A program made the position numbers and the translations under genes. Shown piece by piece: positions 1,485-62,387 of a stretch of DNA of 64,000 nucleotides (positions are counted from its first letter, which is position 1; the number at the start of each line of letters is the position of its first letter). Below the pieces are notes generated by a model. The model did no database searches. It had not been told where the DNA came from and was given only the letters and a program-made list of their open reading frames with translations. The stretch spans positions 12,244-76,243 of the forward strand of contig CAWEPT010000005.1 of NCBI GenBank assembly GCA_963810965.1, written 5' to 3'. The stretch is from an uncultured delta proteobacterium (GTDB lineage Bacteria; Desulfobacterota; Syntrophia; Syntrophales; UBA2192).

Positions 1485-1519
1485 AGCCCCTGAGCCCTGG
1501 ACCCTTGTCCCTAGTCCCT
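1485..1519 (-). repeat. tandem heptamer array, AGGGNNN x5 in - strand (mRNA) sense
   Basis: + strand reads agCCCCT gaGCCCT ggACCCT tgTCCCT agTCCCT. The stop codon of the 1511..3097 gene lies inside the array. A GC hairpin GCCGGGCG-gga-CGCCCGGC follows at 1462-1480. Confidence 0.8.
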
Positions 1520-3097
1520 ATGCTGTTTTTGTACGGGGCCCGCCAGGGCGGGGAAGGCAACCGTTTCCGATTCGCGGAAGGTGCCGATAAAGGCGTTGAC
1601 GACCTGCGGGTCGAACTGGCCGCCGCCGTTTCTGTGCAGCTCCGTTACCGCCTCGTCATGACTCATGCTCATCCGGTAGGGCCGGTTTGTCGTCATGGCG
1701 TCGTAGGCATCGGCCACGGCGATCAGGCGCGACAGCAGCGGGATCGCCTCGCCGGCCAGCCCGTCGGGGTAGCCGGAGCCGTCCCAGTTCTCGTGGTGGT
1801 GGCGGATGATCTTGCGCTCTTTTTCGAAAAGCGCGATCGGGGTGAGGATGTCATCGCCGATCGTGCTGTGGTTCTTGATGATGCCGTATTCCTCTCCCGT
1901 GAGCTCGTCGGGCTTGAGGAGGATGTGATCCGGGATCGCGATCTTGCCGATATCGTGGAGCATCGCGGCGATCTTGAGGCACTCGATGTCGTCGGGGGAG
2001 CATTGCATGATCTCGGCGGTCCGCACCACGAACTGCATGACGCTCTGGGAATGGCGTTCCGTGTACTGGTCCCGGGCCTGAATGGAGGTCACGAGCGCCC
2101 GGAAGGTTTCGGCGATATTCGTGTAGAGGGTCTCATAGAGGACCTTGTTTTCCAGGTTCAGCGAAGCGCGCCTCGCGAGGCTCAGGATGACGTGGAGGTC
2201 CTGATCCGAAAAACAGGCGCCGTTGCGGTCTTTCCAGAGGCCCAGGATCCCGAAGACGTTGTTGCGGATCATCAGAGGGGCGCAGAGGATGGACGCCGAG
2301 CCTTCAGCGTCGGAGACGTTGAACAGGACGCCGTCCCTTTTGCTCACGACCTCGCGGAGCAGCTCCTTCGGCCAGGGCATGGTGTGGCGCGGCGGGATCG
2401 GGTCGATGCAGCCGGTGATCTTGGGCAGGAACTCGTCGGTTTCCCTGTCGTAGAGCAGGATCGCGCAATGCTCCCCGTTCGAGACCTTGAGGGCCAGATC
2501 GGCGATGACGCGGAAGACGTTGTCGTTGCTCACCCCCAGGCGTTCGATGAAGTCGTAGATGAAGCCCGTGGCCGAGACCTGCCGGACCTTGTCGCGCAGC
2601 TTCTCCTGCTCCACCTTGTGCAGCAGGCCGTCGGCCGACAGGAGCGACTTCTCCCGCATGTAGATGTTCACCTTGTACAGAAGCTCGTCGATGCGGAAAG
2701 GCTTCGAGATGAAATCGACGGCCCCCGTCTTCATGGCCGAGACGGACAGGCCGACGGTGGGGTATCCGGTGATCATGATGACCGAGATCGTGGGGTGGAT
2801 CTCCCGGATCCGGCTCAGCAGATCCATGCCGTTCATGCCCGGCATCTGGATGTCGCTGATGACCAGATCGTAGAGATTGGACCGCAGCGCATCGAGGGCT
2901 TCCTTCCCGTCGGAAGCCTCGGTGGCGATGTAGTCGCCCTCGTGCCTCAGGGCCTCGACGATCAGGTTGCGTATGGATGCGTCGTCATCGACGACGAGGA
3001 TGGTCCTCTTATCGGACAAATTCGCGGGCATGACCCTGAATTCGTTCCTTGCGGTCTCCGTATCGTTCATTCCGATCATTCCGACAGCCCCACCCAT
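1511..3097 (-). CDS. response regulator, REC-GAF-HD-GYP (c-di-GMP phosphodiesterase type)
   Basis: Receiver (ILVVDDDASIRNLI...DLVISDIQMPGMNG), central GAF-like region, HD-GYP signature (MLHDIGK...HHENWDGSGYPDGL). The true start may be one of several downstream Met codons. Confidence 0.85.
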   Translation of the reverse strand: MGGAVGMIGMNDTETARNEFRVMPANLSDKRTILVVDDDASIRNLIVEALRHEGDYIATEASDGKEALDALRSNLYDLVISDIQMPGMNGMDLLSRIREIHPTISVIMITGYPTVGLSVSAMKTGAVDFISKPFRIDELLYKVNIYMREKSLLSADGLLHKVEQEKLRDKVRQVSATGFIYDFIERLGVSNDNVFRVIADLALKVSNGEHCAILLYDRETDEFLPKITGCIDPIPPRHTMPWPKELLREVVSKRDGVLFNVSDAEGSASILCAPLMIRNNVFGILGLWKDRNGACFSDQDLHVILSLARRASLNLENKVLYETLYTNIAETFRALVTSIQARDQYTERHSQSVMQFVVRTAEIMQCSPDDIECLKIAAMLHDIGKIAIPDHILLKPDELTGEEYGIIKNHSTIGDDILTPIALFEKERKIIRHHHENWDGSGYPDGLAGEAIPLLSRLIAVADAYDAMTTNRPYRMSMSHDEAVTELHRNGGGQFDPQVVNAFIGTFRESETVAFPALAGPVQKQHRD

Positions 3098-5233: not shown

Positions 5234-5247
5234 CGTCGAAATTGGTG

Positions 5248-5440: not shown

Positions 5441-5450
5441 TCTTTTTTAC

Positions 5451-5488
5451 CCCTGTACCCTGTACCCTGTACCCTGAACCCTCTCCCC
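5451..5488 (+). repeat. tandem heptamer array CCCTGTA x5 abutting a sigma54 promoter
   Basis: ccctgta ccctgta ccctgta ccctgaa ccctctc. Ends 2-3 nt before TGGCAT. Confidence 0.85.
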
Positions 5489-5490
5489 CG

Positions 5491-5506
5491 TGGCATATCA
5501 CTTGCT
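5491..5506 (+). promoter_or_regulatory. sigma54 promoter (-24/-12)
   Basis: TGGCAT-atcac-TTGCT with GG-N10-GC spacing, 65 nt upstream of ATG 5571. Confidence 0.7.
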
Positions 5507-9120: not shown

Positions 9121-10539
<1,419 letters not shown>

Positions 10540-10660: not shown

Positions 10661-10754
10661 ATTGCCGGCGTTCTGAATCGCCGAAACCGCGAACTCACGA
10701 ATTTCCCGCTGTCCCAAAATGGCCTATCTATCTGTTTCCTCCTGCACTTTTCGT

Positions 10755-10770
10755 TGGCACATGCCTTGCA
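10755..10770 (+). promoter_or_regulatory. sigma54 promoter of the flgB operon
   Basis: TGGCAC-atgcc-TTGCA, a perfect consensus, 40 nt upstream of flgB. Confidence 0.85.
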
Positions 10771-12079: not shown

Positions 12080-13737
12080 ATGGGTCAGCTTTTCTCGCAG
12101 ATGTGGAAGGGGTTTGAGTCCCTTCCCGCGTCCCGTAAACTCACCATCCTCGCGGCGGCGGGCATCACGCTTCTGAGCATCGCCCTTGCCGTCGTCTTCA
12201 TCAACCAGCCCGATTACAAGGTTCTCTACACGAACCTCTCCACCGAGGATGCCGGTCAGATCACGGCGCGGCTCCAGGAGAAGAAGATCCCCTACCAGCT
12301 CTCGCCCACAGGGGACATGATCTCGGTGCCTTCCGAAAAGGTGTCGGAGCTGCGGCTGGAACTGGCCGCCTCGGGTCTCCCCAAGGGCGGCGGCGTCGGG
12401 TTCGAGATCTTCGACGCGAAGAACCTGGGTGTGACCGAGTTCGTCCAGCAGCTCAACTACCAGCGCGCCCTCCAGGGGGAGCTCACCCGGACGATCAACA
12501 GCCTCGACGAGATCCAGCAGACCCGCGTCCACCTCGCGATCCCGAAGAAGTCCCTCTTCTCGGAGGACCAGAAAAAGCCCACGGCCAGCGTCGTCGTCCG
12601 GCTCAAGAGCGGGCGAAACTTGAGCGATCCGCAGATCCACGGCATCGCGCACCTCGTGTCGAGCTCCATCGAGGGGATGAGCCCCCGTGACGTGATGATC
12701 GTCGACTCGAGCGGGAAGGTCCTCTCGAAGGTCACCGAGGGGGGCGAGATGGCCCAGCTGTCCAACTCGCAGATCGAGTACAAGAAAAACGTCGAGAAGG
12801 ATCTCACGAGCCGCATCACCTCCATGCTGGAGAAGGTCGTCGGCGAGGGGAAGGCCGTCGTGCGGATCTCCACCGACCTGGACTTCCGGGTCACGGAGAA
12901 AACGGAGGAGAAGTACGACTCCGAGGAGCCCGCCATCCGCAGCGTCCAGCGTTCGCAGGAAAAATCGGGCGCCACCTCGGGCGGGGCGGGCGAAAGCTCC
13001 GTCGCGACGACGGCCCGGCAGGCGGCGCGCCGCCGCGGCCCGCCGGGTCAAACCGCGAGAAGTCCGACGAGACGATCAACTACGAGATCAGCCGCACGGT
13101 CAACAAGACCGTCATGCCCGTGGGCGACGTGAAGAAGCTCTCCATCGCCGTGCTGGTCGACGGCAACTACGTGAAGAGCGACAAGGGGGTCGAGGAATAC
13201 CAGCCGCGGCCCGAGAAGGAGCTGACGGCCCTGGAAGACCTCGTCAAGAAGTCCGCCGGCTTCGATGCCAAGCGGGGTGACCAGGTCGTCGTATCCAACG
13301 TGCCCTTCAAGAAAGTCGACCTGGGAACGGAGCTGGCGGAAAAGTCCTGGCTGGACAAGTTCATGCCCTTCATGCCGCTTGTCCGGTATCTCGTGATGCT
13401 GGTTGTGATCGCCCTGGTGGCACTCTTCGTCGCGAAGCCGCTCGTCCGCATGCTCGCGGAGCGGGGGCGGGAGGTGGAGGTATCCGTCCGGGAAGTGCCC
13501 GCCGGCGCGGGCGCGCTCAAAGGCGGCGACGGGGTGACGCTCTCTCTCGGCGCTCCTCAGCAGTCCCGCGAACTGACGGAGGCCGACATCGTGCGGCACA
13601 TGGCATCGGCGGATTCCAAGCGCTTTGCCGAGCTCCTGAGGAATTGGATCAAGTACAAACAGGGTCTAGGGTACAGGGGACAGGGTACAGGGGAAGAAAA
13701 GAGAGAAACCAGGCTCCCCGATTTCTGTCACTCTTGA
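12080..13737 (+). pseudogene. fliF: flagellar M-ring protein FliF, frame-broken, with repeat-encoded C-terminal tail
   Basis: Fragments 12080..13132 and 13114..13737. The conserved KSDETINYEISRTVNKTVMPVGDVKKLSIAVLVDG is in the second frame. Junction at roughly 12990-13060. The last ~25 codons read through the heptamer array at 13661-13695. Confidence 0.85.
13661..13695 (+). repeat. tandem heptamer array AGGGTAC x5
   Basis: agggtct agggtac aggggac agggtac aggggaa. Confidence 0.85.
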
Positions 13738-13770
13738 CCTGAACCCTGAACCCTTAACCCTGAACCCTGG
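13738..13770 (+). repeat. tandem heptamer array GAACCCT x4 (inverted relative to 13661-13695)
   Basis: gaaccct gaaccct taaccct gaaccct. Lies between the fliF stop and the fliG start. Confidence 0.85.
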
Positions 13771-13777
13771 TTGTATT

Positions 13778-15557: not shown

Positions 15558-15595
15558 CGGAATAGCCGGAATAGACCGGAGCAGACGGAGACAGA
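15558..15595 (+). repeat. tandem nonamer array CGGAATAGA x4 running into the fliI ribosome-binding site
   Basis: cggaatagc cggaataga ccggagcaga cggagacaga, then cccgc-ATG. Confidence 0.8.
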
Positions 15596-15600
15596 CCCGC

Positions 15601-19320: not shown

Positions 19321-19660
19321 TCAGCACTGGCCCCGCTGATTGAAGTCATACCTGTCTCGTCCCGCCTGTAAGGTTTTCCTGATGAGTATTTCGGCAGGAG
19401 CGAGGCTTTCCTTGAGGGCTGCGGCGATGCCATGGGGCGCGGTATTGTCGGCGGGCCTTGTCAGGCCGGGGCACCCTTCTCTCGAGAGGCGCGGGAAAAG
19501 TGAAAATTTGCCCGGTCCTCTCCGGTCGTACAGGAAATAATTGCCCGAACCCCCCGCTTTCCCTCTCCCAATCCCCATCGCCGTCATGGCCGAAAGCCTG
19601 CAGACCGGGCAGTGCATCATCGAAATTACTCAATGATATCGAAATTAAAGTGTTCTTCCT

Positions 19661-19695
19661 CCCCTGGTACCCTATCCCTGGTCCCTGGTCCCTGC
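19661..19695 (+). repeat. tandem heptamer array TCCCTGG x5 abutting a sigma54 promoter
   Basis: cccctgg tacccta tccctgg tccctgg tccctgc. Ends 5 nt before TGGCAC. Confidence 0.85.
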
Positions 19696-19700
19696 TTCCA

Positions 19701-19716
19701 TGGCACAGGCGTTGCT
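19701..19716 (+). promoter_or_regulatory. sigma54 promoter of fliK-flgDE
   Basis: TGGCAC-aggcg-TTGCT. Confidence 0.8.
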
Positions 19717-21874: not shown

Positions 21875-23418
21875 ATGGGAAGCGCACTATGGATCGCCAT
21901 TTCGGGGTTGAATGCCAGCTCCAAGCAGATGGATGTCATCGGTAACAACATCGCCAACGCCAACACGATGGGCTTCAAGGCCGGCAAGACCTACTTCGCC
22001 AACGTGCTGAGCCAGAGCCTCTCCGGCGGGGCCTCCGGCGCCATGCAGATCGGCCAGGGCGTCACCGTGGCCGACGTGGCCACCCAGTTCAGCCAGGGCT
22101 CCCTCGAGTCCACCTCGAGCGCCCTCGACCTGGCCATCGACGGCGGCGGCTTCTTCATCGTCGAGGACAGCGAGGGCTCGCAGTACTACACCCGGGCCGG
22201 CGCCTTCCACATCGACGGCGAGGGCTACCTCGTCGACGTCAACGACTGCCGCGTGCAGGGCTACGCGCCTTCCTCTCCGGCGCTCGGGGATATCAACACG
22301 AGAAGCGCCCAGTCGGCGCCCGCTGCCTCCACGAACTTCTCCGTCGGGCTCAACCTCGATGCCCGGACCGATGCGGGCGGCACATTCTATTCCTCCCAGA
22401 CCGTCTATGATACCCTCGGGGCGGCCCACACGCTCGCCGCGACCTACATGAAGACGGAAGGGGAGGGCCAGTGGGGCATGCGGCATCACCCTGGACGGCA
22501 ATGCCGCCGACACCCAGAATTACACGGGGTTCGCCTTCGACGGCACGGGAAACCTCGACAAGGTCTACAAGCACGGCCATGGGCGCTGCCACCGGCCTCG
22601 GGAACGCGGGCACGGCCACGGCCACCCTTGTCGACGGGCCACGACGGGCAGATTTAGCAAACCGGGCAATCTCGTCACTGCGGCGGGACGCCACGTCCTG
22701 ACAGCTGGTCGCGTCGTTACAGCTACCTCCGATTATGAGAACGCGAGCGTCACGAGTTACGGCACGCTCGGCTAGCGATGACACGCTGGCCATCGACCTC
22801 GACGGTTACGGCGGCGCAGATCTCACCGTGGCCCTCGGCGGGCACCTGGGCCAACAGCGACACGGCTGACCGTCACGTTGACGTCCACGGAAGTGGACCC
22901 CGCCGATATCACCGTTTCCTTCAGCGGCCTTGCCAACGGTGCCACGATCGGGGCATCGGGGGCACCTGACGTGGGACCTGACATCGGCCAGCGCCGAGAC
23001 GATCACCGGCTATGCCTCCAGCTCGACGGTGAAGGCCCTCACCAATGACGGATACCCCTCCGGCGTGCTCCGGAGCCTCGCCATCGAGAAGGACGGCAAC
23101 ATCTCGGGCTTCTTCACGAACGGCCAGACGGCCTCGCTCGGGCAGCTGTGCCTGGCCGACTTCCCCAACCCCTGGGGCCTCAAGAAGATGGGCTCGAACC
23201 TCTTCAGCTCCACCCTCACCTCGGGCCAGGCCATCGTGAACACGCCCGGCGCGGGCGGCCTCGGCGAGGTGACCTCGAACGCCCTGGAGATGTCCAACAC
23301 GGACCTCGGCACGGAGTTCATCAGCATGATCACGGCCCAGAGGGCCTACCAGGCCAGCGCCAAGGTTATTACGACGACGGACGCCATGATGGCCGAACTC
23401 ATGAACATCAAGCGGTAA
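21875..23418 (+). pseudogene. flgE: flagellar hook protein FlgE, about 7 frame breaks in the central variable region
   Basis: The N-terminus (ISGLNASSKQMDVIGNNIANANTMGFK) and C-terminus (EMSNTDLGTEFISMITAQRAYQASAKVITTTDAMMAELMNIKR) are intact. Between ~22475 and ~22960 plausible peptide segments hop between all three frames. Confidence 0.85.
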
Positions 23419-24380: not shown

Positions 24381-24425
24381 CCCATGGCATCCCCCTTGTA
24401 AAAGGGCGACAGAGGGGGATTTGAC

Positions 24426-24470
24426 GGGATAGACGGAATAGACTGAACAGACGGAATAGACGGATTCGAT
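24426..24470 (+). repeat. tandem nonamer array GGAATAGAC x5 ending at the fliM start codon
   Basis: gggatagac ggaatagac tgaacagac ggaatagac ggattcgat, then c-ATG. Confidence 0.85.
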
Positions 24471-27401: not shown

Positions 27402-27443
27402 AGGGGACAGGGTAAAGGGTTCAGGGTTCAGGGTCAGAAGGTA
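27402..27443 (+). repeat. tandem heptamer array AGGGTNN x6
   Basis: aggggac agggtaa agggttc agggttc agggtca gaaggta. Starts at the base after the fliQ TAA. Confidence 0.85.
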
Positions 27444-28274: not shown

Positions 28275-28309
28275 CGGGTACAGGGTCCAGGGCACAGGGT
28301 CCAGGGTTC
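28275..28309 (+). repeat. tandem heptamer array AGGGTCC x5
   Basis: cgggtac agggtcc agggcac agggtcc agggttc, preceded by the hairpin GCGCC-gaac-GGCGC (28261-28274). Confidence 0.85.
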
Positions 28310-29630: not shown

Positions 29631-29702
29631 TCATGTTCAGGACCTGGAAAAATGACGGCAGGTTTCGAGAGTTCAGGTGCATGGTCGGTATTTTTCCGGC
29701 CC

Positions 29703-29733
29703 GATACCCTGAGACCCGAACCCTGTCCCCTGA
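29703..29733 (+). repeat. tandem heptamer array NNACCCT-type x4
   Basis: gataccc tgagaccc gaaccc tgtcccc tga, just upstream of the flhA RBS. Confidence 0.65.
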
Positions 29734-29746: not shown

Positions 29747-31817
29747 ATGGCTGAAGCGGTACAGAGAGCACAGGCCCCGCCTCACTGGGCAGCAAACCCG
29801 GCAATGCTCATGGGCATCGGGGTCATCGGCGTCCTCATGGTCATGGTGATCCCCCTGCCGGCGCTGATCATCGACCTGCTGCTGTCGCTGAGCATCACGC
29901 TTTCCATCGTGATCCTGCTCATGTCCATGTTCGTCATGAAGCCGCTCGAATTTCTCCGCCTTTCCCTCCGTCCTTCTGACGGTGACCCTGTTCCGTCTTT
30001 CGCTCAACGTGGCCTCGTCGCGGCTCATCCTGCTCCACGGAAACGAGGGCACCGGGGCTGCCGGCCAGGTCATCAAGGCATTCGGGACCTTTGTCGTGGG
30101 GGGAAACTACGTGGTGGGGCTCATCGTCTTCGCAGTGCTCACCCTGATCAACTTCGTCGTCATCACCAAAGGCGCCACCCGCATCGCCGAGGTGGCGGCC
30201 CGCTTCACCCTCGACGCCATGCCGGGCAAGCAGATGAGCATCGACGCGGACCTCAATACCGGACTCATCTCCGAGGCCGATGCCCGGCGCCGGCGCGGCG
30301 AGATCGAGCGGGAAGCCGATTTCTACGGCGCCATGGACGGTGCCAGCAAATTCGTGCGCGGCGATGCCGTTGCCGGGATCATCATCATCTTCATCAATGT
30401 CGTCGGCGGCCTCATCGTCGGCGTGCTGCAGCAGGGCATGGACATCACCGATGCGGCCCGCAACTACACGCTGCTCACCATCGGTGACGGGCTCGTGACG
30501 CAGGTGCCGGCCCTGATCATCTCCACGGCCGCCGGCATGCTCGTGACGCGCTCCACCTCATCGTCCAATTTCGGACAGGACATCTCGGATCAGCTCTTCG
30601 CGCAGCCGAAGGTCATCGGCACGGCCGCCGCCATCCTCTTCATCTTTGCGCTGATCCCCGGGATGCCCAAGTTTTCTTTTTTCGTCATCGCCGCAGGGGC
30701 GGGCTTCCTGGCCTTCAGGCTCATGAAGGCGGCTGTGCCCGCCGAGGAGGCCGTGGAAGAGGAGGTAGCGCCGCCGTCGGCCATCGAGACGGTGGACTCG
30801 CTGCTGCCGCTCGATCTGCTGGAGATCGAGGTGGGCTACGGCCTCATCGGCCTCGTCGACATGGCCCAGGGGGGCGAATTGCTCCAGCGCATCAAGTCGC
30901 TGCGCAGGCAGCTGGCCCTGGAGATGGGATTTGTCATCCCGGCCATCCACATCCGGGACAATCTCCAGCTCAAGCCGAACCAGTATTCCGTCATCCTGAA
31001 GGGCGTTGAAATCTCCCGCGGCGAGCTGATGCCCGGGCACTGGCTGGCGCTCACGTCGGACAAGACCCCCAAGGTCAAGGGCATCGACACGAAAGAGCCC
31101 GCCTTCGGATTGCCGGCCGTGTGGATCTCGGAGAGGGAAAAGGAAAGCGTCCAGGCCCGCGGGGTGGTCGTCGTGGACCCCGCCACGGTGGCGACGACGC
31201 ATCTGACGGAGCTCATCAAGAGCCATTCCGACGAGCTGCTGGGGCGGCAGGAGGTCCAGTCGCTCATCGACAATCTCGGGAAGACCTACCCCAGGGTGGT
31301 CGAGGAACTGGTCCCGAAGGTGGTCTCCGCCGGGACGATCCACCGCGTGCTGCAGCGGCTGCTTCGCGAGCGGATCTCCATCCGCGACCTGCTGACGGTG
31401 CTGGAGACGCTGGCCGATTACGCGCCGCTCACGAAGAACATCGACATCCTGACGGGCTACGTGCGCCAGGCCCTGGCCCGGACCATCACGAAGCAGTACC
31501 GGGACGCCGAGGGCAACATTACCGTGGTGATGCTCTCGCCGGAGATCGAGGACAAGATCAGCCACTCCGTCCAGCACACGGAGTTCGAGTCCTACCTCAC
31601 GGTGGACCCGAACTGGGTGCAGAAGATCGTCCGCAGCGTCCAGAAGTACATCGGCGCCTTCACCTCGCGGGGCCTGCAGCCCATCGTGCTGTGCTCCCCG
31701 GGTGCCCGGATTCATTTCCGGAAGGTCCTGGAGAAATTTTTCCCGAACATCATCGTGCTCTCTCACAACGAAATCACGCACGATGTGAACATCAAATCAT
31801 TGGGGATCGTGGAGTAG
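29747..31817 (+). pseudogene. flhA: flagellar export apparatus protein FlhA, one frame break
   Basis: Fragments 29747..~29950 and 29982..31817. KPLEF|SAFPSVLLTVTLFRLSLNVASSRLILL is restored by removing one T from TTT at 29951-29953. Confidence 0.9.
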
Positions 31818-32992: not shown

Positions 32993-33055
32993 AAAGATGG
33001 AAGTTAAGAAGTTAGGAAGCTAAGAAGCTAAGATGACAAAGAAGGGAAGAGGGAC
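32993..33055 (+). repeat. tandem octamer array GAAGYTAA x6-7
   Basis: gaagttaa gaagttag gaagctaa gaagctaa gatgacaa agaaggga. Starts right after the flhF TGA. Confidence 0.8.
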
Positions 33056-35428: not shown

Positions 35429-35470
35429 AAGACAGGGTAAAGGGTTAAGGGTCAAGGGTACAGGGGGCAA
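35429..35470 (+). repeat. tandem heptamer array GGGTNAA x6
   Basis: aaagaca gggtaaa gggttaa gggtcaa gggtaca gggggca, then agaaa-ATG. Confidence 0.85.
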
Positions 35471-35816: not shown

Positions 35817-35850
35817 AAGAAGGGTAGAAGGGTAGATAAGAATACGGGTC
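35814..35850 (+). repeat. short tandem array GGGTAGAA x3
   Basis: gtagaaga agggtagaa gggtagata agaatac. The stop codon lies inside the first unit. Confidence 0.6.
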
Positions 35851-39045: not shown

Positions 39046-39371
39046 AGAAGCGTCGAGCGCGGAGCGTGCAGCGTATGAAGAAGCAAAAAAGAGAAACCGA
39101 GAAGCCGAAGGTTGCGGCGGCGATCCGATACGATGCCGCCAGGGACGATGCCCCGAGGCTCACGGCAAAAGGGCAAGGTCATGTGGCCGAGAGGATCATC
39201 GAGCTTGCCCGGCAGCACAACATCCCGGTCCGCAGCGACAAGGCCCTGATCCAGATCCTGAGCCAGCTCGACATCGACCGGCACATCCCGCCTGAACTGT
39301 ACAAGGCCGTGGCGGAGATCCTCGCCTTTGTCTATTCCGCGAACGAGAAGTACCGGGAAGAACCAGGGTAA
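39042..39371 (+). CDS. FlhB C-terminal-domain-like protein (EscU/YscU family fragment, YlqH-like)
   Basis: KVAAAIRYDAARDDAPRLTAKGQGHVAERIIELARQHNIPVRSDKALIQIL...IPPELYKAVAEILAFVY parallels the post-cleavage FlhB-C domain. Confidence 0.8.
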   Translation: MKKRRARSVQRMKKQKRETEKPKVAAAIRYDAARDDAPRLTAKGQGHVAERIIELARQHNIPVRSDKALIQILSQLDIDRHIPPELYKAVAEILAFVYSANEKYREEPG

Positions 39372-39418
39372 AGGGTAGAGGGTACAGGGTACAGGGTACA
39401 GGGCAAAGACAGAATCCA
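39363..39418 (+). repeat. tandem heptamer array AGGGTAC x7
   Basis: ccagggt aaagggt agagggt acagggt acagggt acagggc aaagaca. The TAA stop at 39369-39371 lies inside the array. Confidence 0.9.
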
Positions 39419-39570
39419 GGCAGAAAGACATCCCGCAGGCAATAATTTCCCGAACTGACCCAAAATTGCCCGCCCGGCACCGGTCAACCCGCCGTCCCTT
39501 TCTTCCGCGGATTTGCCAAGTAAAAAGTAACTCATCTTAATATCAATTATATCAAGCTAGTTATAGTCAT

Positions 39571-39620
39571 TTCCCTCCTGTCCCTGAACCCTGTACCCTG
39601 AACCCTTTACCCTGCTCCCG
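39571..39620 (+). repeat. tandem heptamer array TGNACCC x7 abutting a sigma54 promoter
   Basis: ttccctc ctgtccc tgaaccc tgtaccc tgaaccc tttaccc tgctccc. Inverted relative to 39363-39418. An AT-rich block lies at 39520-39570. Confidence 0.9.
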
Positions 39621-39636
39621 TGGCACACCCGTTGCC
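39621..39636 (+). promoter_or_regulatory. sigma54 promoter of flgF operon
   Basis: TGGCAC-acccg-TTGCC. Confidence 0.8.
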
Positions 39637-39677: not shown

Positions 39678-40391
39678 ATGATGTACGGTGTAAACACGGC
39701 AGTCAGTGCCGCCGTCAAGAAGCTTTCACAGAACGACTACGTGGTCCACAACATGGCAAACGCCAACACGCCGGGGTTCAAGGCCGAGCGGCTCATCTTT
39801 GTGCGCAGGCCCGAGACGGAACCCATGGCCGAGGACAGTTTCAGTCACGATCCCGTCGTCCTCATCGACCACTCGCCGGGGACGCTGCAGAAGAGCGGCA
39901 ACCCGCTCGATGTGGCCATCCAGGGCGAGGGGTTCTTCGTCATCGAGACGAAAGACGGCGAGCGCTACACCCGCAACGGCAGCTTCACCCTCAATCAGAA
40001 CGGCGAGATGGTGACCCAGTCCGGCGATGCCGTGATGGGCGAGGGGGGCCGGATCACCATTTCCGGGAGAAAAGTCGAGATCTCGAACGCGGGGGCCGTC
40101 AGCGTCGACGGCAGCGAGGTGGGCAAGCTCAAGATCGTCGACTTCAAGAAGAAGGACGCACTCGTGAAGCGGGGAAATGGCTTTTTCGAAGCTTCCGGCA
40201 AGGCCGAGCAGGCCGCGGTGGAAACCCCGGATGTCCGCTCGGGCTACCTCGAGACGTCCAATGTCCAGGCCATGAAGGAGATGGTCGAGATGATCGACAT
40301 CCAGCGCTCCTTCGAGGCCTATCTCAAGGTCATGCAGACGATCAGCGAGCAGGACCGGATGTCGACGAACCGCATCGGCAAAATATTTTAG
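39678..40391 (+). CDS. flgF: flagellar basal-body rod protein FlgF
   Basis: HNMANANTPGFKAERLIF...GEGFFVIETKDGERYTRNGSF...VQAMKEMVEMIDIQRSFEAY. Confidence 0.9.
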   Translation: MMYGVNTAVSAAVKKLSQNDYVVHNMANANTPGFKAERLIFVRRPETEPMAEDSFSHDPVVLIDHSPGTLQKSGNPLDVAIQGEGFFVIETKDGERYTRNGSFTLNQNGEMVTQSGDAVMGEGGRITISGRKVEISNAGAVSVDGSEVGKLKIVDFKKKDALVKRGNGFFEASGKAEQAAVETPDVRSGYLETSNVQAMKEMVEMIDIQRSFEAYLKVMQTISEQDRMSTNRIGKIF

Positions 40392-40425
40392 GCTAAAGGC
40401 AAAAGGTAAAAGGCTAAAAGGTACG
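40389..40425 (+). repeat. tandem heptamer array AAGGNTA x5 running into the flgG RBS
   Basis: taggcta aaggcaa aaggtaa aaggcta aaaggta, then cgggaggagaaa-ATG. Confidence 0.8.
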
Positions 40426-42819: not shown

Positions 42820-42885
42820 GGGTAGAGGGTAAAGGGTCCAGGGGGCAGGGAAAATACACAAGGGACAAGCAACAAGGCAAAGAAA
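42820..42885 (+). repeat. tandem heptamer array GGGTNNA x5 degenerating into NNACAAG units
   Basis: gggtaga gggtaaa gggtcca gggggca gggaaaa tacacaa gggacaa gcaacaa ggcaaag. Preceded by the hairpin GGCGC-gaa-GCGCC (42807-42819). Confidence 0.8.
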
Positions 42886-50580: not shown

Positions 50581-50997
50581 ATGGCACTGAGAATCGAACT
50601 GAAGCCGCGCGAGCGGTTCATCCTGGGGGGCGCCGTTCTGCAGAACGGCGATGCGAGATCGGAATTGATCCTCGAGAACAACGTTCCGATCCTCAGGGGG
50701 AAGAATATCCTGAGCCTCGAGGAGGCCGACACCCCCTGCAAGCGCATCTATTTCCTCATTCAGCTCATGTACGTGGAAGGCGGCAATCTCGCGGGGCATC
50801 AGGACACCTACTGGGCCCTGGTCCGCGACATCGTCGAGGCGGCGCCCAGCATGCTCGGCCTCATCGACGCCATCAACGAACACCTCGTCGGCGGCCGTTA
50901 CTACGAGGCCCTCAAGCTGACCCGGAAACTCATCAACGAAGAGGAGAGGTTAATCCAACATGCAGACTCAGGTGCAGGCTTACCAGAACACCCATAA
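50581..50997 (+). CDS. flbT: flagellin synthesis repressor FlbT
   Basis: MALRIELKPRERFILGGAVLQNGDARSELILENNVPILRGKNIL...TPCKRIYFLIQLMYV closely parallels Caulobacter FlbT. Confidence 0.85.
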   Translation: MALRIELKPRERFILGGAVLQNGDARSELILENNVPILRGKNILSLEEADTPCKRIYFLIQLMYVEGGNLAGHQDTYWALVRDIVEAAPSMLGLIDAINEHLVGGRYYEALKLTRKLINEEERLIQHADSGAGLPEHP

Positions 50998-51346
50998 GAT
51001 GGTGATGTCGGATCGTGAAGTGGAGGCGGCGGTCCTCACGAAGGGGGCGCTGATGCTCCGCAACTGCCAGGAGAACTGGACGAGCGGCGGAAACAACGGC
51101 ATGCTCGACGAGGCCCTCCGGTACAACCAGCTCGTCTGGAGCATCTTCCAGGGGGAGATCACCCGGAAGGACCACCCGATGCCTGTGGAGCTGCGGCAGA
51201 AGATCCTGACGCTCAGCCGGTTCATCGACCGGCGCATCTTCGAGGTCATGGCCTATCCCCACTCCGGAAAGCTCAACGCCATCATCAATATCAACCTCAA
51301 CCTGGCCGCCGGACTGAGAGGGTCGTCCGGGGTCGAGGAGGACTGA
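50960..51346 (+). CDS. flaF: flagellar biosynthesis regulator FlaF
   Basis: QAYQNT...DEALRYNQLVWSIFQGEI...PVELRQKILTLSRFIDRRIFEVM matches the FlaF pattern. Overlaps the flbT 3' end. Confidence 0.8.
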   Translation: MQTQVQAYQNTHKMVMSDREVEAAVLTKGALMLRNCQENWTSGGNNGMLDEALRYNQLVWSIFQGEITRKDHPMPVELRQKILTLSRFIDRRIFEVMAYPHSGKLNAIININLNLAAGLRGSSGVEED

Positions 51347-51415: not shown

Positions 51416-54073
51416 TTATCGCCTCAAATTCATCGTTGCACCGAACAGCCGCTCCCCTGCCGGCTCCGGTCCGGCGATGGCGGGGTCGGGCCGCAGGCGG
51501 TCCGGGGCTGCCAATCCAGCAGGATCAGCAGTTGATCCGCCTGGTCTTTTTTCCCTGCCTTCCGCAGCTTCTCGATGACGGGAAGGATCTGGGAACGAGG
51601 CTCGAGTCCCGTCTCGTGAAGCCGCTGCAGGTACTCGGTGCTCCTTCCCGCGTGACCGGCCAGTGCGAAGCAAATGGCAAGAAGGCTCAGGGCAGGGGGA
51701 TAGTCCGGTTCCTTTTTTAAGAGTTTTTTCCGCCATCCTGATGGCCTTGCGGAGATCGCCTGCGAAGAATTCCGCGGCGGCGCAGTTCAGCAGGAGCTCC
51801 CTCGTTCCGTTCGCCTGACCGGCGGCCTTCCGGGCTTCCACGAGCGCCTCGTCGAAGCGATCCGCATTCAGGCAGGCATTGATGAGGTTCACGTAGGCCC
51901 GGCTCACATCCTGTGCCGGCTTGCCGTCGAGATATCTCCTCCACAGCCTGATCGCGTCGTCGTATCGGCCCAGTTCGCCTGCCTGGATCGCAAGCTCCAG
52001 GATCGCCCGGGGGGTGCCGCCCGATTCCTCGATCTTTTTCAGCCCGAGCAGATAGTAGCGCTCCCCCTTCTCGAGAACGCTCGCCCGGTCGAGCTTGCCC
52101 GTGTGATGGACCGGTACGTCGCATGCGGCGATTTTCATGCCCGCCTCGAGCATCGACGGCTCGACAAGCTCGTGCACGGCGCCGGAGAAACGGATCCGGG
52201 GGTCGTTCCGGAAAAGCCGCACCTTGCGGTTGGGGTACCAGCCCGTTCCGGCCTCTTCGTCGCGGTAGGAGCCGTCATTGGCCACCCACCCTGCGGTGTT
52301 TGCCTCGACCACGTAGTTCCGCGTGGTGAGATCATAGCCGCCGGTGCCTTCCGGGCTCTTTCGGATGAGGGCCCTGAGCCTTTCATGATCCCGGGACGAA
52401 ACGGTCTCGTCGGCGTCGATGACCAGGATCCAGTCGCCTGTCGCCTTGGACAGGGAGAAATTTCTCGCGCTGGAGAAATCCTCGTCCCAGGCGAAATCGA
52501 AGACCTTTGCCCCGAAGACGCCGCGATGTCCTTCGTGCGGTCCGTCGAGCCCGTGTCGACGACGATGATCTCGTCGACGGCGGCCTTGACGCTCGAGAGG
52601 CACCGGACGAGGTTGGGCTGCTCGTTTTTGACGATCATGCAGAGGGAAAGGGTTTCCCCTTTTGCTTTTTTCTTGATTTCCAGGGGACCGATTTTGTCTC
52701 GCACTTCCAGGGCGGCGGCGATGAACCCGTCGTCCACGTCGAAAGCTGCCATGGCGGCCTCGATCTCCTCCATCGCCGTCGGCGTGGTTTTCCTGCGAGA
52801 TGAGCAGATCGATCAGGAGGAAGGCGATGCGTGCGGCTTGACGGGTAGAGGCCCGGGCTTCGCGGAAGACGTTCTCCGCGCGGGCGAAGGCTCCGAGCGA
52901 CATCGCCGCCGCGTGATACCGGTCGGCAAGATCCACCACATGGGGCGAGAGGATGAATCCTTTTTCCAGGAGGTCGAAGGATTCGTCCCGCTCACCGGCC
53001 GTCCAGAGCAGGACGCCCAGGTTCGTCAGGGGTTCTCCCCAGGATGGATCGGCCTCGGCCGCCTTCTCGAAGTATTCTCTCGCCTGCTCTGCGGCGTTTT
53101 GCCTGAAGGCAAGGATGCCCTTGAGATTCAGCGCGGGGGCATGGACCTCGTTCATGGAAAGGGCCAGATCGGCAAGATTCCCGGCCTCCTCCAGCTCGTT
53201 CAGGCCCTCCCTGCACTGTCCTTCCAGCACCAGCCTGTCCGCGTCCCCGGATGCGACGGGGCATTGCCGGAGGGCATCGAGGGCATCCCCGTGTCGTCCT
53301 GACTGAATCAGCATTTGCGCAAGCTCGGTATAGTTGCGCTTGTCCTGGGGATCTTGCTGGATCGCGGAGAGGTACAGGTCTACCGCTCCCTTCACGTCAC
53401 CCCGCTGAGAGCTCTTCCAGGCCTGCTCCCGGGCCACGAGAGCCCGGATCTTCCGCCCCTCATGGGGCTTCTGCTCGATGTCACGCCACTTGTCATTGTA
53501 AATTTTTCGATTTCCCGTGAGGGAAGAGCCGTAGTCGATGCGGTTTCCGATGAAGCTGCGGCTCCCGAAGTGGTGGATGAAGACATCGCCTGCGATCACA
53601 TTCCGATAGCCTGCAAGGGCCGCTCTCGCGCAGAAGTCGTCGTCCTCGAAGTTCCCCGTGCCGAAGCTCTCGTCGAGCAGGCCGATCTGATCCACAAGAC
53701 TGCGCCTGAAGAGCATGCAGAAGCCAACGACCCGCCTGGTCTTCTGTGCGCCGATGACGGTTTTTCTCCCTGAAGGATCGGGCATAGCTTTCGAGGCCCT
53801 CGATGGCATCGTAGCCGACCCTGTCCACCTTCTGGACGGCCGCTGATGTTGTTTGTCATGGGTCCGACGATTCCGATATCGGGGCGTGCTTTTCAGGCAT
53901 TCCAGCATGCCCGAGAGCCACTTTTCGGTCACGACGACATCGTTGTTGAGAAGGAGGATATCGTTGCCCGTGGCGGCCTCGATGCCTTGGTTGCAGCCTT
54001 TCGCGAAGCCGAGGTTCTTGCCGTTTTCGATGAGTTTGTAGCTGGGTTCTCCTTGACGAGCTCTTTCAGCCAT
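51416..54073 (-). pseudogene. glycosyltransferase/TPR segment (GT2 C-part, TPR, GT2, TPR), several frame breaks
   Basis: GT2 motifs LLNNDVVV...EDDDFCARA, and LSLCMIVKNEQPNLVRCL..IIVVDTGSTDRT (in track ORF 52135..52773) joined to VIDADE. Garbage stretches at ~53600-53900, ~52500-52800 and ~51710 show frame hops. TPR repeats lie between the GT domains and at the end. Confidence 0.7.
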
Positions 54074-57000
54074 TTGACGGTTCCGTCCTTGGACCCGTTG
54101 TCGACGAAGATGATCTCATGGGGCTCCGGCGTGTGCCTCCGGATGCTCTCGACGCACTTCTTCGTGTACTCGAGCTCGTTGAACGTGAGGATGACGATGG
54201 ACGTGAGAGCGCGTTCCGGACGATCCGGTAAGGAGTTCGACTGATCCTTGGGCTCACGAGACTCGCGAATATCGAGCAACCGATCGTATACCCGGGCATA
54301 ATCTTCGATATTCTCTTCCATCGTCTTGAGGCGGGAATCCCGAAGGTTTGCTGCGACCCTTTCGAGCCGCGTTGGATCGTCCAGAATTTCCAGGAGCCTA
54401 GCCGCGAGGGCCTTGGCGTTTCCGGGAGGGACGAGAAATCCGGTCTCGCCGTCGACGATTCTCTCGCTGATTGCTCCGCAATCGGAAGCGATGACGGGGA
54501 TGCCCATCATCTGCGATTCGCTTGCGGTCAGGCAGAATGTCTCGTCCCATACGGACGGAATCATGACCAGGTGTGTCTTGGACAGCAGTCGCGGAAGATC
54601 GCTGCGTTCATAGAATCCGTGCTGGATGATGCCGAGTTCATTTGCTGTTTTCGTCAGTGAGGGGGGCACGCCGCCGAAAATCTCGAGTCGTATGGGCTTT
54701 CCCTTGAGAATCTTCGCCGCTTGCAGAAGAACGAAAACGCCTTTTCTGTCGCTTGCATTTCCGAGGAAACCCACCCTGAGAACGTTTCCGCGTTTCGCCT
54801 GCTGGCTCTTCTGCAGGGGTTCGATCCCGTGGGGAACGGTGACGATCCTGTCTTTTATCTCCTCTCCATGGGCCTGGATGAACCGTTCGCGCACAAAATC
54901 AGACGGGGCGACCAGGATGTCCGCCGCTTCGATGACGCGCTTGATAATTTGCTTTCGTTCGGCTAAGTAATCCCGCAGTAGCGACGGTTTGCCGGCCCCG
55001 TGATATTTGCGCTTTGTGCCGAGACAATACAGGCATTCGGCGTCTTCGCCGTCCGCAATGGTTTTCCCGCAGCGCCTCAGGTTCGGGAGGATCAAATTGT
55101 AATCGGGGCAGAGCAGGTAGTAATCGTGAAGAGAAATCAAGACCTTGAGGCCTTGATCCTTTGCGATGAGCGGCAGGAGCATGGAGCTCCAGCCGCCGAG
55201 ATGCTGGAAGTGAACGATTGAGGGACGACAGCCCCGCAGGAAGTTCGAAAAGATGGTTTCTACGTACTCGTTTGTCAAGTCTCCGTATATCTCGAGGAAG
55301 GAGTCGGTTACCACGACGGTCTCCTTGCGCAGCTTCAAGACGCGGAGATATCCGTTTACTTCCTTAGCCGCAAGATCGACCCACTGCTCGGGCAGGGATG
55401 CCGGGAACAAAACCGTGCTGTGAAACCGTGAAGACAGACCATCAATAATGTTTCGCGTGTGCAGTTCGGTGCCCCCCGGAGCATCAAAATTGTGAAGGAC
55501 GTGAAGCACGCCCGGCAAAAGAGGGTTTTCGAGCTCTTTGACTTTCCTGAAAATCCGTTCCTGGATCTCCCTTAAAGGATTGATGCAACAGAACCTGTAT
55601 ATTTCTTCCTTGTAGTTCGGCCATTTCTGTTCGAGCAGGCGCTCATTCAATTTGCGTTTTTCGCTGATCCGCGTGATGCTGCCGAAGGAAGCCTCCCCGT
55701 AGTGGTGAACATAGGCGTCGTCACAGCAGACGATCTTTTTCCCGGCATCCCGGGCGCGCATGCAGAAATCATTCTCCTCCCCGTAACCGAGGCCGAATGC
55801 GGGATCAAATGCGCCGGCGTTGTGCAGCGTGTCCCTCGAGATCAACATGCAGAATCCTACGCCGGTCGGGATCTCCGGGTAGGTTCTGCGCGACACCTCT
55901 GCGATCAGGGAACCGAAGCGATTCGTGTCTATCCCCTCCGGGAGAGTATTTGACTGGTTCATGACAGGGACGGAAAGAATCGTCGCATTGTTCGAAAGGG
56001 GGCACACGATGCCGATGTCCGGATGGCTGTTGAGGCAGCGGTGCATTCTGTCGAGCCAACCCTTTGTAACCTCCGTGTCGGAATTGAGAATGACGACGTC
56101 ATTTTCAGACAGTTCGAAACCGCGATTGACGTTGTGGACGAATCCTTTGTTTACGGAGGATTCGATCAGGCGGACCCTTGGATCTGCTTTCTCGAATGAT
56201 TTGAGTAGCGGCAGAACGCGGGAATCCGTGCTGCTGTCATCAAGCAGGTAGATGGCATGGTTGCCCTGCGTGTGGCGGAGAACACTGTCGATGCACCGCT
56301 GGAGATGCTCGAAAGCATTGAAGATCGGGATCAGAATGTCGCAGGACCTGTCAGGCGGGGCGACGTAATCCCCCGAAGCGTTGTTGGTCTTCGAACGCAT
56401 CGCGATCGATTTTATCCGGGAGGAAAGGAACGCGTCCACGCGATCCCTGATCTCTCGATCCGATCCCCCGGTCGGACTGCTGTTCCCTGATCGAGACGCA
56501 TCAGCACGGGAAACGTGCCGGGTTGTGTCGAACGTGCCGGACCCTTCATCTGTCAAGGGCCGAGGGGTGCACGTTGGAATCGATGCATCTTCTGCGGCTG
56601 CTTCAGGATTGGAAGGCGATGATTGTTCCTCTGCCATGCGCTGCAGAACCGAGAGGTTCTCTTCGGCTTGGGCATGACCTGGTGCGATGGACAGCACCCT
56701 GCCGTAGAAGAATCGCGCGTGGTCGAACTGTTTTTGCGTGGAGCAGATGTTTCCGATCCGAAGAAGCGTATCAACGTCATCCGGCTCGAGAGTGAGAGCC
56801 TTGTTGTAGTGGTTGAGCGCACGTTCGATGTCTCCTGTCTCCGCAAGGTACGCGTCGGCGAGGTCTCTGACGAAACGCAATACATCGGGCTGGAGTTGAA
56901 CGGCCCTATCAAGATGGAACAAGGCCTTTTCGATTTCTTTTTCCAGGCAATAAAGGTTCCCCAAATCGTTGTGAGCCCGGGCCTCTTCTGGATGGAGATC

Positions 57001-57174
57001 GAAGCAGGGTCTCGAGATTCTCGATTGCCCTGTCTGTCCGGCCGCGTCGCGCCAGAGACCTGGCCACTCGAACCAAGGCCTCGGGGTCGCGTTTATCCGA
57101 CACCTTTCCCTGCTCCTCCAAAGCGTCGAACATCTTTGCGGCGAGTTCATTCGCAGAATCGATTTCGAGGACAC
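53929..57174 (-). CDS. TPR - GT2 - GT4 - GT2(N-part) multidomain glycosyltransferase segment
   Basis: GT2 CDILIPIFNAFEHLQRCIDSVL..LLDDSSTD..ILNSDTEV. GT4 FLGNASDRKGV..IPSVWDETFCLTASESQMMGIPVIASDCGAISERIVDGETGFLV. Second GT2 start TSIVILTFNELEYTKKCVESI..FVDNGSKDGT. Both ends continue into the neighbouring track ORFs after a frame shift. Confidence 0.8.
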   Translation of the reverse strand: MSSKSILRMNSPQRCSTLWRSRERCRINATPRPWFEWPGLWRDAAGQTGQSRISRPCFDLHPEEARAHNDLGNLYCLEKEIEKALFHLDRAVQLQPDVLRFVRDLADAYLAETGDIERALNHYNKALTLEPDDVDTLLRIGNICSTQKQFDHARFFYGRVLSIAPGHAQAEENLSVLQRMAEEQSSPSNPEAAAEDASIPTCTPRPLTDEGSGTFDTTRHVSRADASRSGNSSPTGGSDREIRDRVDAFLSSRIKSIAMRSKTNNASGDYVAPPDRSCDILIPIFNAFEHLQRCIDSVLRHTQGNHAIYLLDDSSTDSRVLPLLKSFEKADPRVRLIESSVNKGFVHNVNRGFELSENDVVILNSDTEVTKGWLDRMHRCLNSHPDIGIVCPLSNNATILSVPVMNQSNTLPEGIDTNRFGSLIAEVSRRTYPEIPTGVGFCMLISRDTLHNAGAFDPAFGLGYGEENDFCMRARDAGKKIVCCDDAYVHHYGEASFGSITRISEKRKLNERLLEQKWPNYKEEIYRFCCINPLREIQERIFRKVKELENPLLPGVLHVLHNFDAPGGTELHTRNIIDGLSSRFHSTVLFPASLPEQWVDLAAKEVNGYLRVLKLRKETVVVTDSFLEIYGDLTNEYVETIFSNFLRGCRPSIVHFQHLGGWSSMLLPLIAKDQGLKVLISLHDYYLLCPDYNLILPNLRRCGKTIADGEDAECLYCLGTKRKYHGAGKPSLLRDYLAERKQIIKRVIEAADILVAPSDFVRERFIQAHGEEIKDRIVTVPHGIEPLQKSQQAKRGNVLRVGFLGNASDRKGVFVLLQAAKILKGKPIRLEIFGGVPPSLTKTANELGIIQHGFYERSDLPRLLSKTHLVMIPSVWDETFCLTASESQMMGIPVIASDCGAISERIVDGETGFLVPPGNAKALAARLLEILDDPTRLERVAANLRDSRLKTMEENIEDYARVYDRLLDIRESREPKDQSNSLPDRPERALTSIVILTFNELEYTKKCVESIRRHTPEPHEIIFVDNGSKDGTVKWLKELVKENPATNSSKTARTSASRKAATKASRPPRATISSFSTTMSS

Positions 57175-59030: not shown

Positions 59031-59039
59031 CGGATGAAA

Positions 59040-62310: not shown

Positions 62311-62358
62311 CCTCGAACCTCGATCTTCGGTCCTCGGTCCTCGTTTCTTCGTTCCCTG
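62311..62358 (+). repeat. tandem heptamer array CCTCGNN x6-7 abutting a sigma28 promoter
   Basis: cctcgaa cctcgat cttcggt cctcggt cctcgtt tcttcgt tccctgt. Reverse complement of the CGAGG family at 28484. Confidence 0.8.
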
Positions 62359-62360
62359 TC

Positions 62361-62387
62361 TAAAGTTTTTCCATCTCCGGTCGATAA
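62361..62387 (+). promoter_or_regulatory. sigma28 (FliA) promoter
   Basis: TAAAGTTT-N11-GTCGATAA, the best sigma28 match in the window. Confidence 0.75.

Follow-up and report, generated by a model that had tools for sequence, protein, structure and literature searches.

The C-rich heptanucleotide arrays that abut sigma54 promoters in a 64-kb stretch of DNA (the window) from an uncultured member of the Syntrophales represent a lineage-specific, oriented form of the heptanucleotide repeats that other bacteria have between their genes; they are most likely, with a confidence that stops a little short of even, spacer DNA of fixed length and not G-quadruplex switches. The window is a flagellar and chemotaxis region with a G+C content of 60.7%, in which Pfam scans recovered flgBC-fliEFGHIJ, fliK-flgDE, fliLM, fliQR-flhBA-flhFG-fliA, flgFGAHIJ-flgMN-flgKL, the flagellins and flbT/flaF, together with two NtrC-type sigma54 activators, a histidine kinase and a response-regulator/CheW operon. 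The nearest genomes are uncultured Syntrophaceae/Syntrophales metagenome-assembled genomes (MAGs), with FlgF identity of up to 95%. Relatives were gathered by a genome scan with FlgF (loci L001-L069) and a metagenome scan with FliF (L070-L145), synteny being kept; the clade referred to below comprises the contigs whose FliF is at least 84% identical, plus L001-L010.

Perfect matches to the sigma54 consensus TGGCAY-N5-TTGC occur four times in the window, against 0.17 expected, and are conserved in relatives. An earlier note on this DNA had placed arrays of NNNCCCT heptads directly before three of these promoters; its coordinates were confirmed, each array ending 8-10 nt before the perfect site. 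The promoters and their surroundings are as follows.

39571..39620, plus strand: C-rich heptad array (6-7 NNNCCCT units) of the flgF promoter, with an anti-Shine-Dalgarno-like 5' edge, tttccctcc.
39621..39635, plus strand: sigma54 promoter TGGCACACCCGTTGC of the flgF-flgG-flgA-flgH operon, a perfect consensus match.
39438..39471, plus strand: enhancer-like inverted repeat GGCAAT..N..ATTGCC, 149 nt 5' of the TGG, conserved in sequence and in distance (141-153 nt).
39536..39566, plus strand: AT-rich block between the flgF enhancer-like repeat and the array, recognised by its sequence and conserved spacing.
19661..19700, plus strand: C-rich heptad array of the fliK sigma54 promoter, whose orthologues use other units.
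19701..19715, plus strand: sigma54 promoter TGGCACAGGCGTTGC of fliK, a perfect consensus match.
5451..5490, plus strand: C-rich heptad array (CCCTGTA)n of the promoter of a TPR-SPOR gene, 3' of an intrinsic terminator at 5248-5276.
5491..5505, plus strand: sigma54 promoter TGGCATATCACTTGC of the TPR-SPOR gene, a perfect consensus match.
10755..10769, plus strand: fourth sigma54 promoter, that of the flgB operon, a perfect match without an adjacent array and not listed in the earlier note.

The TPR-SPOR array reads cccctgta ccctgta ccctgta ccctgaa ccctctc ccccg up to the promoter at 5491, and the fliK array cccctggta ccctat ccctggt ccctggt ccctgcttcca up to the promoter at 19701. Conserved inverted-repeat elements lie 141-198 nt 5' of the sigma54 sites at near-constant distances; besides the flgF repeat, they include the enhancer-like elements AAATTTGCCC and AATAATTGCCC at 19502-19546 for fliK and the enhancer-like palindrome TCAATTTTTTGACA at 5318-5333 for the TPR-SPOR gene. 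Two NtrC-type activators with an AAA+ Sigma54_activat domain are encoded at 3783-5189 and 9121-10539, and the elements at 39438-39471, 19502-19546 and 5318-5333 are, judging from their conservation, probably the sites of these two proteins. A homologue search with the activator returned only orthologues among the 120 matches listed, and rpoN does not lie within the 64-kb window. The arrays sit where they had been placed, between the enhancer-like elements and the -24 box, and the AT-rich block at 39536-39566 is a possible IHF-type bend site. In the flgB promoter, the array is replaced by a strongly conserved non-repeat element, CCCAAAATGGCCTATCTATCTG at 10713-10734, located exactly 30 nt 5' of the TGG in all relatives that keep it.

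Conservation of the arrays follows the promoter and not the letters of the unit. A heptad array that ends about 9 nt before the TGG is present without exception at these three promoters in the clade, TPR-SPOR, fliK and flgF (29 distinct sequences; about 40 related Syntrophaceae contigs), and the units change by species, with CCCTGTA, CCCTCGT, TCACCTT, TGCCTGA, GAGACCC, CCACCCT, CACTGGT, GCCCTTC and GGGCCSC all found at these promoters. When the sequences are aligned from the TGG, the heptads are in register across species, with CC at fixed positions and always about five units; orthologues of the flgF array in L001-L010 keep the same register. The flgB promoter usually has its non-repeat element in the clade, the exceptions being (TGATCAC)n in L077 and L079 and (GAAGCCT)n in L080 and L130. 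The link between arrays and sigma54 promoters therefore stands for the TPR-SPOR, fliK and flgF promoters, where every covering relative has an array, and fails for the flgB site, which lacks one in most genomes. Autocorrelation at lags of 7 and 14 nt amounts to 0.55 and 0.52 in the 29 distinct clade linkers, compared with about 0.3 both in the linkers of flgB and in 36 from the outgroup. Array, flgB and outgroup linkers alike have little G on the top strand (15-17%).

The length of the linker is held much more tightly than its sequence. From the AT-rich block to the TGG, the distance is 57-58 nt at flgF (46 nt in L005, 54 nt in the window) and 62-63 nt at fliK (60 nt in the window); from the enhancer-like motif to the TGG, flgF has 151-153 or 141 nt (149 nt in the window) and fliK has 157 or 168 nt (154 nt in the window). 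The differences at flgF and fliK are therefore of 0-4 nt or of about one helical turn, and never of 7 or 14 nt. Contigs that are 98.6-99.8% identical show no indel over 4.7-21 kb. A single change of one whole unit was found, a GGCTTGG heptad in the unconstrained post-stop fliF array of two contigs that are 99.1% identical (11578-11606 in L092, 11578-11613 in L093). Slippage thus appears to occur, but the length of the promoter arrays is held constant. The candidate reading of the arrays as phase-variable contingency loci was rejected, the near-identical contigs being free of gaps over those 4.7-21 kb and the spacing to the TGG being conserved within 1-3 nt.

The window itself is to be read with some tolerance. 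At least four genes carry frameshifts, which split the histidine kinase (7887-9084), fliF (12080-13737), flgE (21875-23418) and flhA (29747-31817), and the enhancer-to-promoter distances are 2-4 nt below those of all relatives. The frameshifts reflect either assembly indel errors or decay of the flagellar regulon; taken together with the short spacings, they make small deletions in the assembly likely, and exact heptad lengths in the window, such as the 6-nt unit ccctat, may thus be slightly wrong. The stop codon of fliF is also absent from the window (TAC, compared with TGA in relatives), so that translation runs into the G-rich array that follows; fliF is intact in relatives such as L070.

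Outside the clade, the promoters persist, and arrays are scarce or missing. The nine Smithella-type loci have no arrays, one A-rich run excepted; Smithella and other Syntrophales keep the promoters, with a flgF enhancer distance of 141-150 nt, and are devoid of arrays there. The wider outgroup has 31 arrays in 506 kb, and Syntrophus buswellii has none in 21 kb. In the sister lineage L146, the same array pairs are found in housekeeping spacers such as that between a radical-SAM gene and hemB.

Arrays of period 7 are a general feature of the spacers of the region. There are 19 of them in the window, most at stop codons or ahead of start codons, compared with 0.5 in shuffled sequence, other periods being near background, and Tandem Repeats Finder recovers the same window arrays. 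The clade holds 89 distinct arrays, of which 86 are intergenic and three, of mixed composition, are intragenic. The intergenic ones divide as follows by position and by coding-strand composition.

After a stop codon: 35 arrays, 33 purine-rich.
Before a sigma54 site: 15 arrays, none purine-rich.
Before a start codon: 12 arrays, 11 pyrimidine-rich and one purine-rich.
Other intergenic positions: 24 arrays, mixed.

The arrays are thus not specific to sigma54 or sigma28 promoters, being also present at stop codons, at start codons and in the housekeeping spacers of the sister lineage. The earlier note had further stated that arrays of the opposite orientation put their G-runs after stop codons, which is borne out by the plus-strand arrays starting at 13661, 27402, 28276, 35434, 39364 and 42820 and by that of a minus-strand gene at 1487-1520; in many window spacers, such G-type arrays start 0-18 nt from the stop codon. 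It had overlooked the C-type arrays directly before the ATG codons of fliG and flhA, where a sigma54 promoter is absent. The arrays of the window situated away from sigma54 promoters are these.

13661..13693, plus strand: G-rich array at the end of fliF, translated here as the fliF stop is lost.
13738..13769, plus strand: C-rich array that ends 8 nt before the fliG ATG, without a promoter, and pairs with 13661-13693.
29700..29732, plus strand: C-rich array some 15 nt 5' of the start codon of flhA, without a sigma54 promoter.
39364..39403, plus strand: post-stop G-rich array (AGGGTAC)n over the stop codon of an FlhB-C-like gene, complementary to 39571-39614.
35434..35467, plus strand: post-stop G-rich array between a fliL-like gene and the next gene, from the period-7 scan.
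27402..27434, plus strand: post-stop G-rich array after fliQ, from the period-7 scan.
28276..28307, plus strand: post-stop G-rich array after fliR, from the period-7 scan.
40390..40423, plus strand: post-stop (AGGCTAA)n array in the flgF to flgG spacer, conserved in relatives.
42820..42850, plus strand: post-stop G-rich array after flgH, from the period-7 scan.
1487..1520, minus strand: array, G-rich on the minus strand, directly after the stop codon of an HD-GYP response-regulator gene, from the period-7 scan.

Array polarity tracks gene direction, since the post-stop array of this minus-strand gene reads G-rich on the minus strand. A supply of stop codons in all three frames was rejected as the role of the post-stop arrays, since only units with TAA or TAG provide it and most units (AGGGTAC, AGGGTCC, CGGGTAT) contain neither. 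A CsrA- or HutP-type motif was set aside, as neither a GGA nor a UAG core is conserved.

These observations are consistent with a mechanism in which this Syntrophaceae lineage would turn almost any sequence-indifferent intergenic stretch into a 7-nt lattice, probably by replication slippage in a 7-nt register and in-register homogenisation. A linker of about 45 nt would be such a stretch in three of the four flagellar sigma54 promoters, reaching from the AT-rich block (probably a bend site) to the -24 element, whose length and helical phase would be constrained by looping between enhancer and promoter; G-poor and pyrimidine-rich on its top strand, it would otherwise be free in sequence. The lattice would thus fill this length-constrained, sequence-free linker exactly, flush with the promoter and with about five heptads, the register being kept and the unit changing by species. 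The potential to form a G-quadruplex would often come along with the commonest unit (ACCCT) as a by-product and would not be a selected property. The array would have no sequence-specific role.

Several points weigh against spacer DNA as a full account. Strand polarity (33 of the 35 post-stop arrays purine-rich, none of the 15 before sigma54 sites and one of the 12 before start codons) is not explained by mutation alone and remains the least explained feature. At least four C3 runs are kept in 23 of the 29 promoter arrays, for which a mutational origin gives no account, and the lattice persists at three promoters down to about 80% protein identity, so there could be selection on the repeat itself. 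The enhancer-to-promoter distances of the TPR-SPOR gene fall into two classes, 154-157 and 195-198 nt, and the gap of about 40 nt between them does not correspond neatly to whole helical turns. The assignments of IHF and enhancer sites, for their part, are putative and drawn from conservation. A bolder reading, which we regard as unlikely, is that the heptad lattice is itself functional: about five oriented 7-bp units in a fixed register from -36 to -70, read by a lineage-specific factor or adopting a non-B form (in most species a template-strand G-quadruplex or i-motif), would determine how stiff or how occupied the looping linker is at sigma54 promoters, and the units found around stop and start codons would constitute a genome-wide punctuation code at the RNA level.

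Were the arrays indeed spacer DNA, they would offer a clean natural example of a looping geometry that varies by no more than 1-3 bp, or by one helical turn, while a mutational bias wholly rewrites the sequence underneath, and would be useful for models of sigma54 enhancer-promoter spacing and for bacterial G-quadruplex motif scans; a "textbook" promoter G-quadruplex motif would here be largely a by-product of repeat dynamics. The purine/pyrimidine polarity and the intergenic hairpins (-60 to -100 kcal/mol) could, for their part, mean RNA-level punctuation in uncultured, environmentally abundant syntrophs.

In the G-quadruplex model, which goes back to the earlier note, a quadruplex on the template strand, or an i-motif on the non-template strand, would form in the looping region and modulate how the enhancer-binding protein engages the sigma54 holoenzyme. 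The template strand of all three window arrays does carry the pattern of four G3 runs separated by 1-7 nt (5450-5489, 19661-19692 and 39573-39619), as do 23 of the 29 distinct orthologous promoter arrays; the window contains 17 such motifs compared with 5.8 in shuffles, 12 of the 17 being inside heptad arrays. The arrays lie between the enhancer-like sites and the -24 element, as the model supposes, and an energy model predicts a three-layer quadruplex for the isolated G-strand (-11 to -13 kcal/mol, versus -2 to -9 kcal/mol for structures without a quadruplex), but in duplex DNA a quadruplex has to compete with a GC-rich double helix. The G-runs, moreover, are not conserved: orthologous arrays use units such as TCACCTT, TGCCTGA, CACTGGT and TGATCAC, the last being the unit of the flgB arrays in L077 and L079; six of the 29 are without the motif, and the flgF array of L003 and the fliK array of L076 contain no C3 run at all. 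Sister lineages use the same promoters without arrays, and the units recur beside stop codons and start codons that are unconnected with sigma54. Quadruplex potential is thus frequent but dispensable, since those six arrays lack the motif and the same units are equally common at stop codons, and a regulatory quadruplex appears very improbable. Like the G-quadruplex motifs of other bacterial promoters, the arrays place five to seven G3-N4 repeats on the template strand just 5' of the promoter; unlike them, they carry a motif that is unconserved among orthologues and no rarer at stop codons.

The pyrimidine-rich polarity of the promoter arrays, and their position just outside the transcript, can be accounted for in another way. 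In Escherichia coli, CT-rich motifs in sigma54 promoters silence the translation of read-through transcripts by pairing with the Shine-Dalgarno sequence (SD), which was established experimentally (Levy et al. 2017, bioRxiv 10.1101/086108). The arrays could multiply such motifs in the non-transcribed part of the promoter, so that read-through RNA would pair with the SD and be silenced, and RNA started at the sigma54 promoter would be translated. Folding predictions lend partial support to this possibility, the probability that the SD is unpaired being as follows.

flgF, window: 0.69 in the native transcript, 0.17 in read-through RNA, 0.73 with the array randomised.
fliK, window: 0.38 in the native transcript, 0.04 in read-through RNA, 0.25 with the array randomised.
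Mean of 30 distinct array promoters: 0.42 in the native transcript, 0.24 in read-through RNA, 0.31 with the array randomised.

The predicted fall in read-through RNA is array-dependent at flgF and fliK, and across the 30 promoters the read-through values are below the randomised ones (Wilcoxon p 0.027), but only 18 of the 30 sequences show an array-specific effect. In the window, the SD pairs with the T-rich/CCUCC edge at the 5' end of the array rather than with the heptads; the prediction gives no effect at the TPR-SPOR promoter, whose array lies behind the terminator at 5248-5276, nor at the flgB promoter. As anti-SD sequences, units like CACTGGT and TGATCAC are poor, and neither the 7-nt period nor the conserved length is explained. 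Both systems have CT-rich motifs in sigma54 promoter DNA that is not itself transcribed, with SD sequestration predicted here for flgF and fliK; the motifs of Levy et al. are single, 3-5 nt long and at most about 50 nt from the transcription start site, whereas those found here form periodic arrays with a partial effect that comes mostly from the edge. Insulation of this kind is, on balance, an unlikely purpose of the arrays.

The opposite polarity of post-stop and pre-gene arrays raises the question as to whether they are the two arms of long RNA hairpins, which would stabilise the 3' end of the upstream transcript, insulate operons or couple translation between stop and start. The longest and best inverted repeat of the window (33 nt at 91%) has the flgF array as its 3' arm and pairs it with 39364-39403, and the RNA of the flgF spacer (39355-39625) folds with a predicted dG of -106 kcal/mol (z -7.0); the fliF/fliG spacer folds with -64.6 kcal/mol (z -6.5), the stop and start codons being placed at the base of the stem. 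The same architecture exists in the housekeeping spacers of L146. Among 16 distinct fliF/fliG spacers, the unit family changes jointly in both arms, and RNAduplex gives -41.5 kcal/mol for arms of the same spacer versus -35.8 kcal/mol for cross pairs, with a permutation p of 0.00035 that ignores kinship and is thus optimistic, as the sequences are related. The concordance of the arms could, however, also come from templated (quasi-palindrome) mutation without selection; the arms of L071 and L078 are not complementary, and in the window the pair between the second activator gene (EBP2) and flgB does not reach significance (z -0.12). Neither the window nor the relatives contain a complementary partner for the promoter arrays of the TPR-SPOR gene and fliK, and for these two the hairpin was rejected (the fold of 5187-5490 has a z of -0.97); the TPR-SPOR array is probably not transcribed at all, since it lies behind the intrinsic terminator at 5248-5276. 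As a general explanation of the arrays, hairpin formation is quite improbable. At fliG (13650-13785), no SD is visible and the ATG lies 1-3 nt past the base of the -64.6 kcal/mol hairpin, the other base of which is the position of the fliF stop codon in relatives; this geometry suggests coupling by termination and reinitiation.

Similarly, one could envisage an oriented DNA- or single-strand-binding factor that reads one unit per 7 nt beside the promoter. The register of the CC dinucleotide relative to the TGG is conserved across species with the other positions variable, the number of units is always about five, polarity is strictly kept and identical arms recur in two spacers of L076. There are precedents, as OB-fold proteins that bind one heptamer each have been described (PMC4679880) and a partner has been posited for promoter-proximal heptamers in Nostoc (bioRxiv 10.1101/2022.06.06.494920). 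No unit is conserved, however, and L076 (TCACTGG) and L077/L079 (TGATCAC) lack even the CC; a conserved register is predicted by in-register slippage alone, and no candidate protein emerged. A dedicated reader of the heptads is about as improbable as the hairpins. Quadruplexes, anti-SD insulation, hairpins and a heptad reader would each account for part of the cases only, and slippage-built spacer DNA remains the preferred reading.

Tandem heptamers have been described in several other bacterial groups. According to the summary of Mrazek et al. (2007) given in PMC4679880, heptanucleotides are the commonest class of long simple sequence repeats (LSSRs) in prokaryotes rich in simple sequence repeats, and polymerase slippage is held responsible. 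As far as that summary goes, LSSRs resemble the present arrays in being head-to-tail 7-nt units, almost all intergenic, phylogenetically sporadic and attributed to slippage. The present arrays are likewise tandem head-to-tail copies longer than chance, within the 5-11 nt range of LSSR units, and share the confinement of LSSRs to non-coding DNA (86 of the 89 clade arrays), which is ascribed in LSSRs to a unit length that is not a multiple of three. They differ from LSSRs as there summarised in being short (4-7 units), oriented with the gene, flush with a stop codon, a start codon or the -24 element, and often arranged in inverted pairs. Copy number varies in LSSRs, whereas the promoter arrays keep a constant length; whole-unit change is limited here to the 7-nt difference between L092 and L093, which lies after a stop codon, near-identical contigs being otherwise without indels.

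In marine Beggiatoaceae, cyanobacteria and Bacteroidetes, TAACTGA direct repeats were described with a proposed post-transcriptional role (MacGregor 2015, PMC4679880). They too are short oriented heptamer arrays (2-6 copies), located a few nucleotides before start codons or over upstream stop codons (PMC4679880). Their unit is fixed, whereas here there are many unit families per genome, an association with sigma54 and inverted pairing. The short tandemly repeated repetitive (STRR) heptamers of cyanobacteria were reportedly described by Mazel et al. in 1990; we know of no sigma54 context for cyanobacterial heptamer repeats. Together with the heptamers of Nostoc, they are tandem repeats near promoters or start codons, as here, but belong to another phylum and consist of other units (CCCCAGT, TTGGTCA, CAACAGT). 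In Nostoc, deletion of promoter-proximal heptamers altered how a regulator acts on recO, and the repeats were suggested to have a hitherto unknown partner that binds them (bioRxiv 10.1101/2022.06.06.494920). Closer in phylogeny, the deltaproteobacterium Geobacter metallireducens has multicopy heptanucleotide elements of proposed regulatory function, made of four tandem GGGACCG/GGACCGG or five MTYCTGA units at many intergenic sites (PMC2700814); these have a fixed consensus and are also intragenic, whereas the units of the present arrays vary by locus and species. Neither strand of the window contains tandems of TAACTGA, CCCCAGT, TTGGTCA, CAACAGT, GGGACCG or GGACCGG, and identity with the known Geobacter families was rejected, as their units are absent and the nearest genomes are Syntrophaceae MAGs. 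The inverted pairs, and the identical arms at two loci of L076, could recall REP/MITE-like elements with their multicopy conserved inverted arms, yet most arms are locus-specific and many arrays are unpaired.

The earlier note had also associated a heptad array with a sigma28 promoter, as follows.

62311..62360, plus strand: CCTCGNN heptad array 5' of the sigma28 promoter, found by Tandem Repeats Finder and common only to L154.
62361..62387, plus strand: sigma28-type promoter TAAAGTTT-N11-GTCGATAA of the response-regulator/CheW operon, with one mismatch to the enteric sigma28 consensus.

The array does abut the near-consensus site at 62361, which is the single occurrence in the window of the consensus with one mismatch and is conserved in relatives; among six distinct sequences, however, only one relative (L154) shares the array, the others having a pyrimidine-rich non-repetitive stretch or only two units. 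A weaker sigma28-like site with three mismatches, on the minus strand at 3508-3534, has no adjoining array and faces a minus-strand open reading frame of 71 aa and the HD-GYP response-regulator gene.

An Rfam scan of all 64 kb gave no match at the gathering threshold. The lineage does not repeat 7-mers alone. Other short-period arrays occupy spacers at 5208-5237, 15558-15597, 24423-24464, 33000-33033 and 35818-35836; a 9-mer family, GGAATAGAC, is present at three loci and in both orientations, and the 8-mers GAAGCTAA and AGAAGGGT come after stop codons. A terminator-like palindrome, ATCCCCC...GGGGGATTTGA followed by a T-run, is found between array pairs at 24385-24424 and in the EBP2/flgB spacers of L073, L087 and L091; its 3' end has one exact copy in the window, where the palindrome AGGGGGATTTGA also occurs exactly once. 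In L076, the array pair (AAGCAGC)n ... (CTTGTTG)n is present in both the EBP2/flgB spacer (about 8540-8603) and the spacer upstream of fliK (about 16120-16182); the identical arms and different loops hint at gene conversion or mobility of array pairs.

FlbT and FlaF are encoded at 50581-51346, within a flagellar cluster of deltaproteobacterial type. They are translational regulators of flagellin best known from Alphaproteobacteria. The adjoining minus-strand block at 51416-59746 consists of very large TPR/glycosyltransferase genes, with a GC3 below that of the rest of the window and without heptad arrays, and is a possible flagellin glycosylation island.

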